From the NCBI RefSeq assembly GCF_003334305.1, contig NZ_QOWS01000013.1: DNA of 64,000 bases; one strand, written 5' to 3'. Position 1 is the first letter of the stretch; the number at the start of each line of letters is the position of its first letter. Positions 21,617-32,023 of this stretch are shown here, piece after piece. The translations under genes and the position numbers were made by a program. A model generated the notes under the pieces. The model saw only the letters and a program-made list of their open reading frames with translations. It was not told the origin of the DNA and did not search any database. This DNA is from Escherichia coli (GTDB taxonomy: Bacteria > Pseudomonadota > Gammaproteobacteria > Enterobacterales > Enterobacteriaceae).

Positions 21617-23050
21617 CTAATTGTTCTGATAAATATCTTTATACAAACGGCTTTCAAAACGCACTAACGGAATACGGCGATTACGCTGATCCGCCGGTTC
21701 TACTGCATAGCCAGAAAGATATTGTACAAACGCCATTCGTTGCCCGCTCGCTGTGGTAATGAATCCCGCCAGGTTATATACCCCCTGCAACGAACCGGTT
21801 TTCGCTGAGACTTTTCCATCCACGCCCGCCTGATGCAGACCTGCACGGTACTGCAAAGAGCCGTCATAGCCCGCAAGCGGCAGCATGGAGATAAAGTTAA
21901 GTTCATTGTCGTGTTGGGCAATGTATTGCAGCACCTGCATCATGGTGGCGGGGGCAATCAGGTTATGCCGCGAAAGCCCTGAACCATCGGCAATAATGGT
22001 GTTTCCAATATCGACACCGGCTTGCTGGCGCAGGATCTGACGCACGGCGTCCGACCCGGCCCGCCATGTTCCAGGCACATTGAAGCGCGCATGGCCTATC
22101 ATGCGGAAAACCGTATCGGCGATCATGTTGTCCGACTTTTTCAGCATAATCTTAAGCAGATCGTGCAACGGGGCCGACTGTTTACTGGCAACTACCGTTC
22201 CAGGTTCGTTAACCTGAGTCTGGCGCAGCAGTGTTCCGCTCCAGGTGATACCTGCCTGTTTTAACTCATCTTTCAGAATTGCCCCGGCATAGCTGGCTCC
22301 ATCCTGCACGGCAAAAGCCAACGGGAGCGGCTCAGAACGTTGTGGCAGGCATCCCGTCAGCGTAAAGCGGTTCAGGTCGCCTGGTACGACATCCAGTTCG
22401 CAGTATTGCGCTTCGGCAGAACCTCGGGGGAGGGTGCGTACCTGGCTGAACATCGTAACGGGGTAATAAGATGCCACGCGTATAAAAGCCATATCACCAG
22501 GTTTTGGGGCACTGTAGAGCGAGACGGAGAAACAGTTGCGGTCAACTATGGCAGCGGCAGGCGGAGCGCTAAAGCATTGTGTCATGTCATTCCATGGCCA
22601 GCCGGGGGCTTTATCGTGGCTGGCGAAAATGGAGGTATCTATCAACACATTGCCATCGATTTGGTTGACGCCAGATTTTTTCAAAGTCGCGACCATATTG
22701 CGAATATCCTGACGTTTTAACGTCGGATCGGCACCAAATCGCGCCACTAAGTCACCCTTAAGTACGCCGTTTTCCACATTGCCTTTGGTTTCAAGCGTCG
22801 TGGTGAAACGAAAATCGGGGCCGAGTTGAATCAACGCCGCCAGCGCAGTAATCACTTTCTGCGTACTGGCGGGCAGCGCCATCTGCTGACTGTGGTAATC
22901 AATAGCGGGGGCCGACGCGCCGACTTTTTGCACCATCAGGGCAAGGTTGGCACCAGCGGGGAGTTGAGTAACGTACTCATCAACATTCGCGGCCTGAACA
23001 CTGAACGCTATACAGCTGGTCAATCCGATGATAAATCTGGAAAATCGCAT
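21617..23050 (-). CDS. dacB: D-alanyl-D-alanine carboxypeptidase/endopeptidase PBP4 DacB, 477 aa
   Basis: Signal peptide plus SxxK-containing PBP4 translation (PASTQK). Confidence 0.96.
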   Translation of the reverse strand: MRFSRFIIGLTSCIAFSVQAANVDEYVTQLPAGANLALMVQKVGASAPAIDYHSQQMALPASTQKVITALAALIQLGPDFRFTTTLETKGNVENGVLKGDLVARFGADPTLKRQDIRNMVATLKKSGVNQIDGNVLIDTSIFASHDKAPGWPWNDMTQCFSAPPAAAIVDRNCFSVSLYSAPKPGDMAFIRVASYYPVTMFSQVRTLPRGSAEAQYCELDVVPGDLNRFTLTGCLPQRSEPLPLAFAVQDGASYAGAILKDELKQAGITWSGTLLRQTQVNEPGTVVASKQSAPLHDLLKIMLKKSDNMIADTVFRMIGHARFNVPGTWRAGSDAVRQILRQQAGVDIGNTIIADGSGLSRHNLIAPATMMQVLQYIAQHDNELNFISMLPLAGYDGSLQYRAGLHQAGVDGKVSAKTGSLQGVYNLAGFITTASGQRMAFVQYLSGYAVEPADQRNRRIPLVRFESRLYKDIYQNN

Positions 23051-23170
23051 AATCTCGCGCTAACAACCTGGAATCGAGCCGTCATACTACGGCGCAACGC
23101 CCTATAAAGTAAACGATGACCCTTCGGGAACTTCAGGGTAAAATGACTATCAAAATGTGAATTGTAGCTG

Positions 23171-23203
23171 ACCTGGGACTTGTACCCGGGTCGGTATTTT
23201 TTT
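23171..23203 (+). terminator. Terminator/attenuator hairpin in the greA leader (source of GraL short transcripts)
   Basis: Hairpin ACCTGGGACTTGTACCCGGGT followed by T7, about 95 nt upstream of the greA ATG. Confidence 0.5.
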
Positions 23204-23297
23204 GCTTCTGGTCCCGGTGAGGAGTTATGCCGGGCAGGCCGAACAGCCGGGGTGGGTGAAGACTTGCCCCATCAGGAATATTCAAGAGGTATAACAA

Positions 23298-23774
<477 letters not shown>

Positions 23775-23817
23775 GAATTACCCAATACTCAAGATGTTGA
23801 TGTATTGTAAAGAAAGG

Positions 23818-23846
23818 AAAAAGGCCGCTATGCGGCCTTTTATCAA
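23818..23846. terminator. Bidirectional terminator between convergent greA and yhbY
   Basis: Hairpin GGCCGCTATGCGGCC flanked by A and T runs. Confidence 0.65.
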
Positions 23847-23929
23847 CGAACAGAGCGTGGCATTTTGCTCTCCTGCCTGCGGAAAACCCCTCGTTTTACA
23901 CAGCAAATGTGTGTAACTTTAGGATAATC

Positions 23930-24223
23930 TTAGCGTGGCAGCGAGATTTTACGTTCTTTAGTTGGGCGATAAAGCACCAGCGTTTTACCGATGACCTGTA
24001 CATTACAGGCGCCGGTTTCGCGCACGATAGCTTCCACGATCAAGGTTTTAGTTTCGCGATCTTCGGTGGCGATTTTCACCTTGATGAGTTCATGGTGCTC
24101 TAACGCTTGTTCAATCTCGGCCAGCACCCCTTCGGTCAAACCATTACTGCCAAGCAGAACAACTGGCTTGAGCGGATGTGCCAGACCTTTCAGGTGCTGT
24201 TTTTGTTTAGTACTCAGATTCAT
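23930..24223 (-). CDS. yhbY: CRS1/YhbY-type RNA-binding ribosome assembly factor YhbY, 97 aa
   Basis: Translation MNLSTKQKQHLKGLAHPLKPVVLLG. Confidence 0.93.
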   Translation of the reverse strand: MNLSTKQKQHLKGLAHPLKPVVLLGSNGLTEGVLAEIEQALEHHELIKVKIATEDRETKTLIVEAIVRETGACNVQVIGKTLVLYRPTKERKISLPR

Positions 24224-24348
24224 CGTATTTTTTGCTTACGTTGGGATTGAAAACGGGTCATTCTACCGCCATCTCCCATATATCACCAAATAGGCGCGTA
24301 AAAATTTACGCAATTGGTTACGATGAGTTATCCCCATGGGAAAGTTAA

Positions 24349-24978
24349 ATGACAGGTAAGAAGCGTTCTGCCAGCTCCAGCCGCTGGCTTCAGGAACACT
24401 TTAGCGATAAATATGTTCAACAGGCACAGAAAAAGGGGTTACGTTCCCGTGCCTGGTTTAAACTTGATGAAATACAGCAAAGTGACAAACTCTTTAAACC
24501 GGGAATGACGGTTGTCGACCTTGGTGCTGCTCCGGGTGGTTGGTCACAATATGTGGTCACCCAAATTGGCGGCAAAGGCCGCATCATCGCTTGCGATCTT
24601 TTACCTATGGATCCTATCGTTGGTGTGGACTTTCTTCAGGGCGATTTTCGTGATGAACTGGTGATGAAAGCACTGCTGGAGCGCGTTGGCGACAGCAAAG
24701 TCCAGGTTGTCATGTCCGATATGGCACCAAACATGAGCGGAACACCGGCGGTGGATATCCCCCGTGCCATGTATCTGGTGGAACTGGCGTTAGAAATGTG
24801 TCGTGATGTATTAGCGCCAGGTGGCAGTTTTGTAGTGAAGGTGTTCCAGGGCGAAGGTTTCGATGAGTATCTAAGGGAAATTCGCTCCCTGTTTACGAAG
24901 GTCAAAGTTCGTAAGCCGGACTCTTCTCGTGCACGTTCGCGGGAAGTGTATATTGTAGCGACCGGGCGTAAACCCTAA
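24349..24978 (+). CDS. rlmE: 23S rRNA U2552 2'-O-methyltransferase RlmE (FtsJ/RrmJ), 209 aa
   Basis: SAM-binding motif [14 protein letters not shown] in the translation. Confidence 0.96.
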
Positions 24979-25077
24979 CCGGGAGATTTCAGACGAAAGT
25001 TTGAAAGATGCTGGATATAGAGTATCCTGACGCTGTTTTTAACACAGTTGTAATAAGAGGTTAATCCCTTGAGTGAC

Positions 25078-27012
25078 ATGGCGAAAAACCTAATACTCTG
25101 GCTGGTCATTGCCGTTGTGCTGATGTCAGTATTCCAGAGCTTTGGGCCCAGCGAGTCTAATGGCCGTAAGGTGGATTACTCTACCTTCCTACAAGAGGTC
25201 AATAACGACCAGGTTCGTGAAGCGCGTATCAACGGACGTGAAATCAACGTTACCAAGAAAGATAGTAACCGTTATACCACTTACATTCCGGTTCAGGATC
25301 CGAAATTACTGGATAACCTGTTGACCAAGAACGTCAAGGTTGTCGGTGAACCGCCTGAAGAACCAAGCCTGCTGGCTTCTATCTTCATCTCCTGGTTCCC
25401 GATGCTGTTGCTGATTGGTGTCTGGATCTTCTTCATGCGTCAAATGCAGGGCGGCGGTGGCAAAGGTGCCATGTCGTTTGGTAAGAGCAAAGCGCGCATG
25501 CTGACGGAAGATCAGATCAAAACGACCTTTGCTGACGTTGCGGGCTGCGACGAAGCAAAAGAAGAAGTTGCTGAACTGGTAGAGTATCTGCGCGAGCCGA
25601 GCCGCTTCCAGAAACTCGGCGGTAAGATCCCGAAAGGCGTCCTGATGGTCGGTCCTCCGGGTACCGGTAAAACGTTGCTGGCGAAAGCGATTGCAGGCGA
25701 AGCGAAAGTTCCGTTCTTTACTATCTCCGGTTCTGACTTCGTAGAAATGTTCGTCGGTGTGGGTGCATCCCGTGTTCGTGACATGTTCGAACAGGCGAAG
25801 AAAGCGGCACCGTGCATCATCTTTATCGATGAAATCGACGCCGTAGGCCGCCAGCGTGGCGCTGGTCTGGGCGGTGGTCACGATGAACGTGAACAGACTC
25901 TGAACCAGATGCTGGTTGAGATGGATGGCTTCGAAGGTAACGAAGGTATCATCGTTATCGCCGCGACTAACCGTCCGGACGTTCTCGACCCGGCCCTGCT
26001 GCGTCCTGGCCGTTTCGACCGTCAGGTTGTGGTCGGCTTGCCAGATGTTCGCGGTCGTGAGCAGATCCTGAAAGTTCACATGCGTCGCGTACCATTGGCC
26101 CCCGATATCGACGCGGCAATCATTGCCCGTGGTACTCCTGGTTTCTCCGGTGCTGACCTGGCGAACCTGGTGAACGAAGCGGCACTGTTCGCTGCTCGTG
26201 GCAACAAACGCGTTGTGTCGATGGTTGAGTTCGAGAAAGCGAAAGACAAAATCATGATGGGTGCGGAACGTCGCTCCATGGTGATGACGGAAGCGCAGAA
26301 AGAATCAACGGCTTACCACGAAGCGGGTCATGCGATTATCGGTCGCCTGGTGCCGGAACACGATCCGGTGCACAAAGTGACGATTATCCCACGCGGTCGT
26401 GCGCTGGGTGTGACTTTCTTCTTGCCTGAGGGCGACGCAATCAGCGCCAGCCGTCAGAAACTGGAAAGCCAGATTTCTACGCTGTACGGTGGTCGTCTGG
26501 CAGAAGAGATCATCTATGGGCCGGAACATGTTTCTACCGGTGCGTCCAACGATATTAAAGTTGCGACCAATCTGGCACGTAACATGGTGACCCAGTGGGG
26601 CTTCTCTGAGAAATTGGGTCCACTGCTGTACGCGGAAGAAGAAGGTGAAGTATTCCTCGGCCGTAGCGTAGCGAAAGCGAAACATATGTCCGATGAAACT
26701 GCACGTATCATCGACCAGGAAGTGAAAGCACTGATTGAGCGTAACTATAATCGTGCGCGTCAGCTTCTGACCGACAATATGGATATTCTGCATGCGATGA
26801 AAGATGCTCTCATGAAATATGAGACTATCGACGCACCGCAGATTGATGACCTGATGGCACGTCGCGATGTACGTCCGCCAGCGGGCTGGGAAGAACCAGG
26901 CGCTTCTAACAATTCTGGCGACAATGGTAGTCCAAAGGCTCCTCGTCCGGTTGATGAACCGCGTACGCCGAACCCGGGTAACACCATGTCAGAGCAGTTA
27001 GGCGACAAGTAA
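25078..27012 (+). CDS. ftsH: ATP-dependent zinc metalloprotease FtsH (HflB), 644 aa from the ATG (647 aa if the upstream TTG at 25069 is used)
   Basis: Walker [12 protein letters not shown] region and zinc site HEAGH in the translation; two TM segments at the N-terminus. Confidence 0.96.
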
Positions 27013-27043
27013 GTTCCCGCATCAGATGACTGTATTTGTACCG

Positions 27044-27076
27044 AAAACCCCGGGGCGTGCTCCGGGGTTTTTTCTT
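27044..27076 (+). terminator. Rho-independent terminator downstream of ftsH
   Basis: Hairpin CCCCGGGGCGTGCTCCGGGG followed by a T6 tract. Confidence 0.7.
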
Positions 27077-27101
27077 ATCAATTCATACCAGGGATAACAT
27101 C

Positions 27102-27950
27102 ATGAAACTCTTTGCCCAGGGTACTTCACTGGACCTTAGCCATCCTCACGTAATGGGGATCCTCAACGTCACGCCTGATTCCTTTTCGGATGGTGGCACG
27201 CATAACTCGCTGATAGATGCGGTGAAACATGCGAATCTGATGATCAATGCTGGCGCGACGATCATTGACGTTGGTGGCGAGTCCACGCGCCCAGGGGCGG
27301 CGGAAGTTAGCGTTGAAGAAGAGTTGCAACGTGTTATTCCTGTGGTTGAGGCAATTGCTCAACGCTTCGAAGTCTGGATCTCGGTCGATACATCCAAACC
27401 AGAAGTCATCCGTGAGTCAGCGAAAGTTGGCGCTCACATTATTAATGATATCCGCTCCCTTTCCGAACCTGGCGCTCTGGAGGCGGCTGCAGAAACCGGT
27501 TTACCGGTTTGTCTGATGCATATGCAGGGAAATCCAAAAACCATGCAGGAAGCTCCGAAGTATGACGATGTCTTTGCAGAAGTGAATCGCTACTTTATTG
27601 AGCAAATAGCACGTTGCGAGCAGGCGGGTATCGCAAAAGAGAAATTGTTGCTCGACCCCGGATTCGGTTTCGGTAAAAATCTCTCCCATAACTATTCATT
27701 ACTGGCGCGCCTGGCTGAATTTCACCATTTCAACCTGCCGCTGTTGGTGGGTATGTCACGAAAATCGATGATTGGGCAGCTGCTGAACGTGGGGCCGTCC
27801 GAGCGCCTGAGCGGTAGTCTGGCCTGTGCGGTCATTGCCGCAATGCAAGGCGCGCACATCATTCGTGTTCATGACGTCAAAGAAACCGTAGAAGCGATGC
27901 GGGTGGTGGAAGCCACTCTGTCTGCAAAGGAAAACAAACGCTATGAGTAA
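27102..27950 (+). CDS. folP: Dihydropteroate synthase FolP, 282 aa
   Basis: Start at the internal Met [12 protein letters not shown]; pterin-binding motif [13 protein letters not shown]. Confidence 0.95.
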
Positions 27951-29280
27951 TCGTAAATATTTCGGTACCGATGGGATTCGTGGTCGTGTAGGGGATGCGC
28001 CGATCACACCTGATTTTGTGCTTAAGCTGGGTTGGGCCGCGGGTAAAGTGCTGGCGCGCCACGGCTCCCGTAAGATTATTATTGGTAAAGACACGCGTAT
28101 TTCTGGCTATATGCTGGAGTCAGCACTGGAAGCGGGTCTGGCGGCAGCGGGCCTTTCCGCACTCTTCACTGGCCCGATGCCAACACCGGCCGTGGCTTAT
28201 CTGACGCGTACCTTCCGCGCAGAGGCCGGAATTGTGATATCTGCATCGCATAACCCGTTCTACGATAATGGCATTAAATTCTTCTCTATCGACGGCACCA
28301 AACTGCCGGATGCGGTAGAAGAGGCCATCGAAGCGGAAATGGAAAAGGAGATCAGCTGCGTTGATTCGGCAGAACTGGGTAAAGCCAGCCGTATCGTTGA
28401 TGCCGCGGGTCGCTATATCGAGTTTTGCAAAGCCACGTTCCCGAACGAACTTAGCCTCAGTGAACTGAAGATTGTGGTGGATTGTGCAAACGGTGCGACT
28501 TATCACATCGCGCCGAACGTGCTGCGCGAACTGGGGGCGAACGTTATCGCTATCGGTTGTGAGCCAAACGGTGTAAACATCAATGCCGAAGTGGGGGCTA
28601 CCGACGTTCGCGCGCTCCAGGCTCGTGTGCTGGCTGAAAAAGCGGATCTCGGTATTGCCTTCGACGGCGATGGCGATCGCGTGATTATGGTTGACCATGA
28701 AGGCAATAAAGTCGATGGCGATCAGATCATGTATATCATCGCGCGTGAAGGTCTTCGTCAGGGCCAGCTGCGTGGTGGCGCTGTGGGTACATTGATGAGC
28801 AACATGGGGCTTGAACTGGCGCTGAAACAGTTAGGAATTCCATTTGCGCGCGCGAAAGTGGGTGACCGCTACGTACTGGAAAAAATGCAGGAGAAAGGCT
28901 GGCGTATCGGTGCAGAGAATTCCGGTCATGTGATCCTGCTGGATAAAACTACTACCGGTGACGGCATCGTTGCTGGCTTGCAGGTGCTGGCGGCGATGGC
29001 ACGTAACCATATGAGCCTGCACGACCTTTGCAGCGGCATGAAAATGTTCCCGCAGATTCTGGTTAACGTACGTTACACCGCAGGTAGCGGCGATCCACTT
29101 GAGCATGAGTCAGTTAAAGCCGTGACCGCAGAGGTTGAAGCTGCGCTGGGCAACCGTGGACGCGTGTTGCTGCGTAAATCCGGCACCGAACCGTTAATTC
29201 GCGTGATGGTGGAAGGCGAAGACGAAGCGCAGGTGACTGAATTTGCACACCGCATCGCCGATGCAGTAAAAGCCGTTTAA
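27943..29280 (+). CDS. glmM: Phosphoglucosamine mutase GlmM, 445 aa
   Basis: Active-site motif SASHNP in the translation; 8-nt overlap with folP. Confidence 0.96.
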
Positions 29281-29298
29281 AGCGTTAGATAACTGGCT

Positions 29299-29327
29299 AA
29301 AAAGGCGGCGATTGTCGCCTTTTTTCT
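29299..29327 (+). terminator. Rho-independent terminator after glmM
   Basis: Hairpin GGCGGCGATTGTCGCC followed by T6. Confidence 0.7.
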
Positions 29328-29507
29328 CAGCGAACACATCGGTTTTGCTGTTTTTTTCCGCAGTTGATACAATGCGATAAAATTGCCCTTGCGAAGGTCA
29401 TTCGCTTTGGTTAGTATTCACACCCGCTTCAGTGGGAAAGATTAAAAACTCCCGCTTTATTGGTTGAAGCATTGGTACGCGGCAACTCCGCAAGGAACAG
29501 GTTGATT

Positions 29508-29840
29508 ATGTACGAAGCTCTTTTAGTAGTTTTCCTTATTGTGGCAATTGGCCTTGTTGGTCTGATCATGCTGCAGCAAGGTAAAGGCGCTGATATGGGA
29601 GCCTCCTTCGGAGCAGGCGCTTCCGCTACGCTGTTTGGTTCAAGTGGTTCTGGTAACTTCATGACCCGCATGACGGCGCTGCTGGCAACGTTATTCTTCA
29701 TCATCAGTCTGGTGCTGGGTAACATCAATAGCAACAAAACCAATAAAGGTAGCGAATGGGAAAATCTGAGTGCACCGGTGAAAACCGAACAAACCCAACC
29801 AGCTGCTCCGGCTAAGCCGACCAGCGATATCCCGAACTAA
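29508..29840 (+). CDS. secG: Protein translocase subunit SecG, 110 aa
   Basis: Start at the internal Met MYEALLVVFLIVAIGLVGLIML; ORF-track start at 29460 rejected. Confidence 0.95.
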   Translation: MYEALLVVFLIVAIGLVGLIMLQQGKGADMGASFGAGASATLFGSSGSGNFMTRMTALLATLFFIISLVLGNINSNKTNKGSEWENLSAPVKTEQTQPAAPAKPTSDIPN

Positions 29841-29854
29841 AAAGTAGTATCCGT

Positions 29855-29941
29855 GCCGAGGTGGTGGAATTGGTAGACACGCTACCTTGAGGTGGTAGTG
29901 CCCAATAGGGCTTACGGGTTCAAGTCCCGTCCTCGGTACCA
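29855..29941 (+). tRNA. leuU: tRNA-Leu (anticodon GAG), 87 nt, class II with long variable arm
   Basis: Sequence GCCGAGGTGGTGGAATTGGTAGACACGCTACCTTGAGGTGGTAG...GTCCTCGGTACCA with the anticodon loop CTTGAGG and an encoded CCA end. Confidence 0.95.
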
Positions 29942-29950
29942 AATTCCAGA

Positions 29951-29978
29951 AAAGAGACGCTGAAAAGCGTCTTTTTTC
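29951..29978 (+). terminator. Rho-independent terminator after leuU
   Basis: Hairpin AGACGCTGAAAAGCGTCT followed by T6. Confidence 0.75.
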
Positions 29979-30397
29979 GTTTTGGTCCTGGTCTGAGGAA
30001 TGGTTGTCAGGTATCTGTATCTCGTCCAGTTGCTTTACTCGTAGCTGGTACCTTGAAACGATGGTGCCGGTACGCCTTAGTTATAAACTTTTCCCTTCTG
30101 CTGACATAATTGGCACTTTATTGTGTCAACTCCAGTTCCGGTACGAATACGGATATGTTTACTTCTCGATAAACCATCCTGCTCCTGTCAGTATAACTAC
30201 TGATGGCTACGTTCTGCGTAATGTTTAGAGACGCATTGATAATGTTATTTAATTACTGAGAACAATGGCCGCATCATTTAAAAAGAAAAAACTAACAGTG
30301 TTTCGGTCTGATATGGATCAGAGTTGAAAAACATGTCTGATATAAAATTGAACATTGTTGATAATTGTTTATATTGGTTGTGAACTTGGATTTCTGG

Positions 30398-32023
30398 ATG
30401 ACAGTATTCAACAAATTTGCTAGAAGTTTTAAATCTCATTGGTTGTTGTATCTTTGTGTTATTGTTTTTGGTATTACGAACTTAGTCGCCTCTTCCGGAG
30501 CGCATATGGTTCAGCGATTGCTGTTCTTCGTCCTGACCATCCTGGTTGTTAAACGTATATCATCCCTTCCGCTTCGCCTGCTTGTTGCCGCACCATTTGT
30601 GTTACTGACTGCGGCAGACATGAGTATTAGCCTCTATTCATGGTGTACCTTTGGTACAACTTTCAATGATGGATTTGCGATTAGTGTGCTGCAGAGTGAT
30701 CCGGATGAAGTTGTCAAAATGCTGGGGATGTATATCCCTTATCTATGTGCTTTTGCTTTTTTATCCCTTCTTTTTTTGGCAGTAATAATAAAATATGATG
30801 TTTCCTTGCCGACAAAAAAAGTGACAGGAATATTATTGCTGATTGTCATTTCGGGCAGTTTATTTTCCGCTTGTCAATTTGCTTATAAAGATGCAAAAAA
30901 TAAAAAAGCGTTCAGTCCATATATACTAGCGTCGCGATTTGCTACCTATACGCCGTTTTTTAATCTCAACTATTTTGCTTTAGCAGCGAAAGAGCATCAA
31001 AGATTACTCTCAATTGCAAACACGGTGCCGTATTTTCAATTATCAGTCAGGGATACAGGTATTGATACCTACGTGTTGATTGTGGGGGAGTCTGTACGTG
31101 TCGACAATATGTCTTTGTATGGATATACACGCTCTACGACACCGCAAGTTGAAGCACAAAGAAAACAGATCAAACTGTTTAATCAAGCAATAAGCGGCGC
31201 ACCTTACACTGCGCTGTCGGTTCCCCTTTCTTTAACTGCTGATTCTGTTTTGAGTCATGACATTCATAATTACCCCGACAACATTATTAATATGGCTAAT
31301 CAAGCAGGATTTCAGACTTTCTGGCTAAGCTCGCAATCCGCTTTTCGGCAGAATGGTACAGCAGTTACCAGTATCGCCATGCGCGCCATGGAAACAGTCT
31401 ATGTCAGAGGATTTGATGAATTGTTGTTGCCGCATTTATCGCAAGCGTTACAGCAAAAGACGCAGCAAAAGAAACTGATTGTTCTTCATTTAAATGGAAG
31501 CCATGAACCGGCTTGTAGCGCCTATCCGCAATCCAGCGCCGTGTTTCAACCGCAGGACGATCAGGATGCCTGCTATGACAACTCCATTCATTACACAGAC
31601 AGTTTGCTAGGTCAGGTTTTTGAATTATTAAAAGATCGCCGCGCCTCGGTCATGTATTTTGCCGACCACGGCCTGGAACGCGACCCTACGAAGAAGAACG
31701 TCTATTTTCATGGAGGCAGGGAGGCCAGCCAGCAGGCATATCATGTCCCGATGTTTATCTGGTATAGCCCCGTTCTTGGGGATGGCGTGGATCGCACAAC
31801 AGAAAACGATATCTTTTCCACTGCGTACAATAATTACCTTATTAATGCGTGGATGGGGGTAACAAAGCCGGAACAGCCGCAAACGCTGGAGGAAGTGATT
31901 GCACACTATAAAGGAGACTCACGGGTTGTGGATGCAAACCATGATGTTTTCGATTATGTGATGCTCAGAAAGGAGTTTACAGAGGATAAGCAAGGTAACC
32001 CCACCCCTGAAGGGCAGGGTTGA
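30398..32023 (+). CDS. yhbX: Sulfatase / phosphoethanolamine-transferase-family inner membrane protein YhbX, 541 aa
   Basis: N-terminal TM segments followed by an alkaline-phosphatase-like domain; coding sequence is visibly AT-rich; start at the internal Met MTVFNKFARSF. Confidence 0.88.
   Translation: MTVFNKFARSFKSHWLLYLCVIVFGITNLVASSGAHMVQRLLFFVLTILVVKRISSLPLRLLVAAPFVLLTAADMSISLYSWCTFGTTFNDGFAISVLQSDPDEVVKMLGMYIPYLCAFAFLSLLFLAVIIKYDVSLPTKKVTGILLLIVISGSLFSACQFAYKDAKNKKAFSPYILASRFATYTPFFNLNYFALAAKEHQRLLSIANTVPYFQLSVRDTGIDTYVLIVGESVRVDNMSLYGYTRSTTPQVEAQRKQIKLFNQAISGAPYTALSVPLSLTADSVLSHDIHNYPDNIINMANQAGFQTFWLSSQSAFRQNGTAVTSIAMRAMETVYVRGFDELLLPHLSQALQQKTQQKKLIVLHLNGSHEPACSAYPQSSAVFQPQDDQDACYDNSIHYTDSLLGQVFELLKDRRASVMYFADHGLERDPTKKNVYFHGGREASQQAYHVPMFIWYSPVLGDGVDRTTENDIFSTAYNNYLINAWMGVTKPEQPQTLEEVIAHYKGDSRVVDANHDVFDYVMLRKEFTEDKQGNPTPEGQG

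Follow-up and report, generated by a model that had tools for sequence, protein, structure and literature searches.

Leaky terminators inside operons

Two well-known examples of leaky intrinsic terminators inside operons are the rpsU-dnaG/rpoD terminator and the rplL-rpoB attenuator. Read-through of terminators has also been described on a genome-wide scale (PMC6131387). The site between ftsH and folP of Escherichia coli resembles these systems in several respects: essential genes lie on the same strand on either side of a hairpin and a U tract, the hairpin is partly read through and the spacer downstream of it has no room for a promoter. A direct test of an attenuating role at ftsH/folP, be it by deletion, reporter or in vitro assay, was not found in the literature searched. 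Conditional terminators of the riboswitch and attenuator type likewise have a hairpin immediately before a coding sequence, but the ftsH/folP site differs from them in having no conserved sensor, antiterminator pairing, leader peptide or Rfam match.

The hairpin is identical to the ftsH (hflB, b3178) terminator of EcoCyc and RegulonDB, and the site in the strain examined here does not deviate from it at a single position. It is a genuine stop signal of ftsH transcription that had been catalogued previously, in an ordinary arrangement. It very probably acts as a leaky intrinsic terminator of ftsH whose read-through gives a low level of folP and glmM expression. Such a role accounts for how two essential enzymes of low abundance can be encoded past a strong terminator although no promoter is visible. 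The finding matters little beyond correct annotation; it might be of use for engineering folP or glmM expression, folP being the sulfonamide target, and for interpreting polar effects of ftsH mutations.

Locus and gene order

The window analysed here is a stretch of 64,000 nucleotides of E. coli DNA, to whose plus strand all positions below refer. It corresponds to the minus strand of MG1655, and a base-by-base check established that an MG1655 coordinate equals 3352013 minus the window position. At the terminator the two sequences are identical. The MG1655 record lists greA, rlmE, ftsH, folP, glmM, secG and leuU on one strand, which matches the order in the window. The ftsH-folP site belongs to the E. 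coli chromosome: a 701-nt stretch around it is 100% identical to many strains and was found in 5426 of 5426 complete E. coli genomes, annotated as ftsH followed by folP. The 89-nt ftsH-folP spacer was likewise detected in all 5426 genomes, of which three have no intact copy.

The ftsH coding sequence covers 25078..27012 according to the RefSeq annotation of identical DNA and the list of open reading frames; it ends with TAA at 27010-27012, and its annotated start at 25078 compares with a mechanical ORF start at 25069. The folP coding sequence (dihydropteroate synthase) extends over 27102..27950 and that of glmM over 27943..29280, both on the basis of the ORF list and the MG1655 annotation. The folP ATG at 27102 is backed by a 282-aa translation and by the MG1655 annotation. 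Seven nucleotides 5' of it lies a putative Shine-Dalgarno sequence, AGGGA (27090..27094), which probably serves as the ribosome binding site; CAGGGA or AAGGGA is retained in most related ftsH-folP spacers. The glmM ATG starts at 27943 and the folP stop codon ends at 27950, so that the two genes overlap by 8 nt, as had been described.

Downstream of glmM, a terminator scan detected the glmM terminator at 29307..29328, with GGCGATTGTCGCC followed by T6. Published RNA 3' ends at 3322685 and 3322686, equivalent to window positions 29328 and 29327, map to this terminator (PMC6131387; PMC7815308). Towards the other end of the gene string, upstream of greA, the Rfam greA leader (RF01769) was recognized with 127.5 bits at 23081-23202. 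This known element closes with a strong terminator-like hairpin at 23167-23195.

Structure and detection of the hairpin

The terminator hairpin occupies 27043..27072, as judged from its fold, its conservation and the EcoCyc terminator centre, which falls on the loop. Its sequence reads GAAAACCCCGGGG-CGUG-CUCCGGGGUUUUU and is followed by UCUUAUC. The G/C core consists of eight pairs, seven G-C and one G-U, formed between 27048-27055 and 27060-27067, and encloses the four-nucleotide loop CGUG (27056-27059). Five further A:U and G.U pairs between 27043-27047 and 27068-27072 build an outer stem and bring the total to 13 pairs. The U tract UUUUUUCUU spans 27068..27076, is apparent from the sequence and contains the RNA 3' end at 27075; in the DNA it is composed of T6 at 27068-27073 followed by CTT. 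The stem lies on the ftsH strand and begins 31 nt past the stop codon of that gene, and the folP ATG follows 25 nt past position 27076, or 28 nt past the T run. These coordinates agree with the preliminary description, which had placed a hairpin with T6 between ftsH and folP, 25 nt ahead of the folP start.

The hairpin folds with -21.0 kcal/mol compared to a mean of -11.2 (sd 2.3) for shuffled sequences, corresponding to a z-score of -4.23, and none of 200 shuffles folded as well. It stays intact in both the minimum free energy and the centroid fold of a 151-nt context. When the 90-nt spacer was folded, UCCC at 27013-27016 paired with GGGA at 27091-27094 of the folP Shine-Dalgarno sequence in the MFE and the centroid structure. 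This pairing comprises four pairs only, its upstream partner is unconserved in other genera and it is probably meaningless.

The ftsH-folP hairpin was absent from the list produced by the built-in terminator scan of the window. The likely reason is that the maximal stem takes in five of the six T's; with the A:U pairs counted as stem, only TCTTATCA is left as a tail, which falls short of the T count that the scan requires. A replacement scan, in which folding is confined to the stretch ahead of each T run, ranked the hairpin second strongest on the plus strand. It reported nine sites on both strands of the window, compared to zero to three per dinucleotide shuffle. The site thus combines the usual traits of an intrinsic terminator, namely a G/C stem-loop (the usual stem having about 5-14 bp and the loop 3-8 nt) with an adjoining U tract, in vivo 3' ends about 7-9 nt past the stem and a location on the sense strand after a stop codon.

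RNA 3' ends in living cells

Full-length primary transcripts from cells grown in M9 and in rich medium have been sequenced by SMRT-Cappable-seq (PMC6131387, Supplementary Data 1). A transcript that runs from a transcription start site (TSS) at 3326978 to a termination site (TTS) at 3324938 was recorded in both media. The TTS corresponds to window position 27075, a U after U6C, and lies 8 nt past G27067, the last nucleotide of the stem (PMC6131387). The ftsH 3' UTR, up to this mapped RNA 3' end, accordingly covers 27013..27075. Continuous coverage lacking 3' ends at the hairpin had been named beforehand as the pattern that would speak against a terminator; the published 3' ends at the hairpin are the opposite of that pattern. 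The preliminary view of a strong hairpin terminator inside the gene string is thus borne out by a stability of -21 kcal/mol (z -4.2) and by mapped ends.

In the same data set the row for TTS 3324938 is typed as 'terminator', with b3178 as the nearest known TTS, centred at 3324955, which is window position 27058 in the loop (PMC6131387). According to the methods of that study, the type denotes a match to termination sites identified earlier by experiment and taken from EcoCyc, and the hairpin between ftsH and folP had consequently already been catalogued.

Adams et al. (2021) compiled curated Term-seq 3' ends for three conditions, and none of these ends falls within 3323000-3326999 (PMC7815308). 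The same lists do contain the glmM 3' end at 3322686. The thresholds applied to the Term-seq data may be a cause of this discrepancy with the long-read study. The TERMITe data gave no match to the locus by gene name or coordinate, which carries no weight either way. Supplementary file 2 of Adams et al. (2021) lists no Rho-dependent region at 33249xx (PMC7815308), and termination between ftsH and folP probably proceeds independently of Rho or other factors.

Read-through into folP and glmM

The long reads also permit an estimate of how many transcripts escape the terminator. In M9, 129 reads from TSS 3326978 end at the TTS, 27 end up to 50 bp downstream and 16 pass; in rich medium the corresponding numbers are 86, 11 and 20 (PMC6131387). 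The pass-through reads extend by a median of 1200 nt in M9 and 924 nt in rich medium (PMC6131387). From these counts, the pass-through share amounts to 9-11% in M9 and 17-19% in rich medium, values that come from one long-read study, whose size bias probably makes long read-through molecules seem rarer than they are. An rlmE-ftsH-folP transcript is recorded as well, as the extension of operon b3179|b3178 to b3179|b3178|b3177 (PMC6131387). Transcripts from upstream promoters hence run on into folP, the behaviour of a leaky terminator. In Pseudomonas aeruginosa, induction of RpoH raises folP and glmM along with ftsH (PMC9866376), a joint rise that would fit co-transcription of ftsH, folP and glmM in a relative.

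The preliminary description had suggested regulated read-through as one way to transcribe folP. Read-through itself is documented by the roughly 11-19% of passing reads and by the rlmE-ftsH-folP transcript; regulation did not find comparable backing. An antiterminator, a protein, temperature or growth condition could in principle act on the hairpin and tune folP-glmM apart from ftsH. A share of 11% in M9 against 19% in rich medium points in this direction, and condition-dependent read-through has been argued to be common (PMC6131387). The difference between the media is, however, not significant (Fisher p = 0.10, or 0.07 with an alternative count), and the 151-nt context (overall z -0.6) offers no competing antiterminator fold. 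From the stop codon to the hairpin, genera share no conserved sequence. An Rfam scan of 22000-32000 at E <= 1 gave no match at the hairpin, and the stop codon, 31 nt before the stem, is too far away for a terminating ribosome to disturb it. Active regulation of the read-through is therefore very unlikely.

Promoters around ftsH, folP and glmM

A promoter scan placed an ftsH-proximal promoter, TTGAAA-16-TATCCT, at 25001..25035 including its start at 25035. This start is TSS 3326978 (PMC6131387); it lies 7 nt past the -10 hexamer in the spacer between rlmE and ftsH. Transcripts that read through from greA and rlmE into ftsH (b3181|b3179|b3178) have been recorded, too (PMC6131387). Further downstream, a glmM-only transcript from TSS 3324325 (window 27688) to 3322685 was detected in rich medium (PMC6131387), and due to this start inside folP, glmM is not expressed solely through folP. 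The corresponding glmM promoter within folP (27652..27688) can be drawn as TCGACC-17-AAAAAT, with the start 8 nt past the putative AAAAAT hexamer and TCGACC 17 nt further upstream.

A separate folP-glmM promoter within about 30 bp, the other possibility raised in the preliminary description, is hard to reconcile with the sequence. The Shine-Dalgarno sequence has to lie within the 28 nt that follow the T run, which leaves no room there for a complete promoter. A relaxed sigma-70 scan for predicted starts at 26907-27102 yielded nothing better than 7 of 12 matches. No TSS at 33249xx or 33250xx is contained in the SMRT-Cappable-seq supplementary data (PMC6131387), and the same holds, with less weight, for the Cappable-seq paper. 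A literature search for the gene pair and for a named folP promoter returned nothing useful.

Transcription of folP-glmM mainly from a promoter of its own, in which case the terminator would merely insulate ftsH transcription, deserves consideration on other grounds. Genomic SELEX placed a constitutive site for the RpoD holoenzyme in the ftsH-folP interval and assigned it to folP-glmM (Shimada 2014, PMC3946193); folP mRNA may thus have sources other than read-through. Databases and engineering papers treat folP-glmM as a separate unit; Rugbjerg 2018, for example, replaces the 'native folP-glmM promoter', whose position the main text does not give. The only good sigma-70 match nearby is GTGAAA-18-TATAAT at 26722-26751 inside ftsH, which agrees with the consensus at 10 of 12 positions.

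On the other side, the SELEX peak comes without a promoter sequence (Shimada 2014, PMC3946193), and since the spacer provides no room, a promoter dedicated to folP-glmM would have to overlap the hairpin or sit in the 3' end of ftsH. Any transcript that starts upstream of 27043 must pass the same terminator. Only 2 of 73 species have the TATAAT of the 26722-26751 match, which is confined to Escherichia, and the encoded Asn varies; the candidate was rejected as a conserved element. Synonymous-site constraint over the last 260 ftsH codons (780 nt) showed mild dips and no clear signal. A weak promoter may exist upstream of the hairpin, and its transcripts would still meet the terminator. Taken with the promoter scan and the TSS data, these observations make a main promoter of folP-glmM's own rather unlikely.

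Conservation among Enterobacterales

The comparison was made within the Enterobacterales. A scan for FolP with one genome per species provided 80 loci, which together with the window gave 81, of which 77 were parsed automatically and four by eye. All 81 carry a hairpin and a T run 3' of the ftsH stop codon, across genera as different as Escherichia, Salmonella, Citrobacter, Erwinia, Pantoea, Serratia, Yersinia, Rahnella and Hafnia. The hairpins fold with -11.8 to -23.5 kcal/mol (median -18.4), and the T run is 4-9 nt long throughout. Between the end of the T run and the folP ATG lie 21-252 nt (median 38 nt); with 28 nt, E. coli is near the short end.

Paired positions were compared level by level, starting at the base of the stem, in the 55 distinct hairpins, since a MAFFT alignment had not kept them in register. 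Pairing is held at every level, in some instances through compensatory double changes, such as C-G to U-A or G-C at level 4 and G-C to A-U at level 6. Level 7 is mixed (G-C, A-U, G-U and C-G), and the CCCCGG/CCGGGG stem base is largely invariant. The flanks of the hairpin, including the ftsH 3' UTR upstream of it, diverge completely between genera. That the hairpin, the T tract and the short spacer are kept in all 81 loci suggests that the leak, too, is conserved as part of the arrangement, and this conservation is the one modest addition to the known picture.

The divergence of the flanks also bears on the idea that the ftsH 3' UTR and the terminator are released as a 3'-UTR-derived regulatory sRNA. 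With its stable hairpin, its long U tract and the A tract ahead of it, the site resembles the Hfq-binding ends of such sRNAs, a likeness that goes no further than resemblance. A seed would be expected in the 30 nt ahead of the hairpin, but these are wholly different between genera, Rfam holds no family at the site and the curated Term-seq lists contain no abundant 3' end there (Adams 2021, PMC7815308). An sRNA from this site is extremely improbable. The lack of a competing fold, the unconserved 3' UTR and the missing Rfam match leave both regulated read-through and an sRNA unsupported.

Probable expression of folP and glmM by read-through

Under the favoured explanation, a partly read-through intrinsic ftsH terminator, RNA polymerase that has started at the rlmE and ftsH promoters would first transcribe the 8-bp G/C stem with its tetraloop and next UUUUUUCUU. 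At window position 27075 most complexes would release their RNA, which yields the rlmE-ftsH and ftsH mRNAs. A minority, about 10-20% in the sole data set that counts it, would run on into folP and glmM. The leak would supply a low, fixed share of the strong ftsH transcription to two essential and less abundant enzymes. Translation of glmM may be coupled to that of folP by the 8-nt overlap, and the promoter inside folP would top up glmM. Most folP mRNA probably arises by read-through, and the arrangement presumably serves to set a low dosage of folP-glmM relative to ftsH.

A more far-reaching version of this idea can be formulated for the Enterobacterales as a whole. Expression of folP and of part of glmM would have no promoter of its own and would depend wholly on a tuned leak of the ftsH terminator. 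The dosage of both would thereby be linked to the heat-shock-responsive rlmE and ftsH promoters, and the leak itself might be condition-dependent (11% versus 19% in the only data set). This extended version is unlikely to be correct.

An insertion within the hairpin

In E. coli FDAARGOS_943 (NZ_CP065615.1), an IS4-like element, ISEc60, is inserted within the terminator hairpin at the equivalent of window positions 27052-27063. It spans 2501-3900 of the examined locus, and its transposase gene is co-directional with ftsH and folP. The target duplication comprises 12 bp, GGGGCGTGCTCC. The upstream copy of the hairpin has lost its 3' arm and the U tract, and the copy on the folP side has lost its 5' arm. 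As a result of the insertion, the essential folP lies 1.3 kb from ftsH in this strain.
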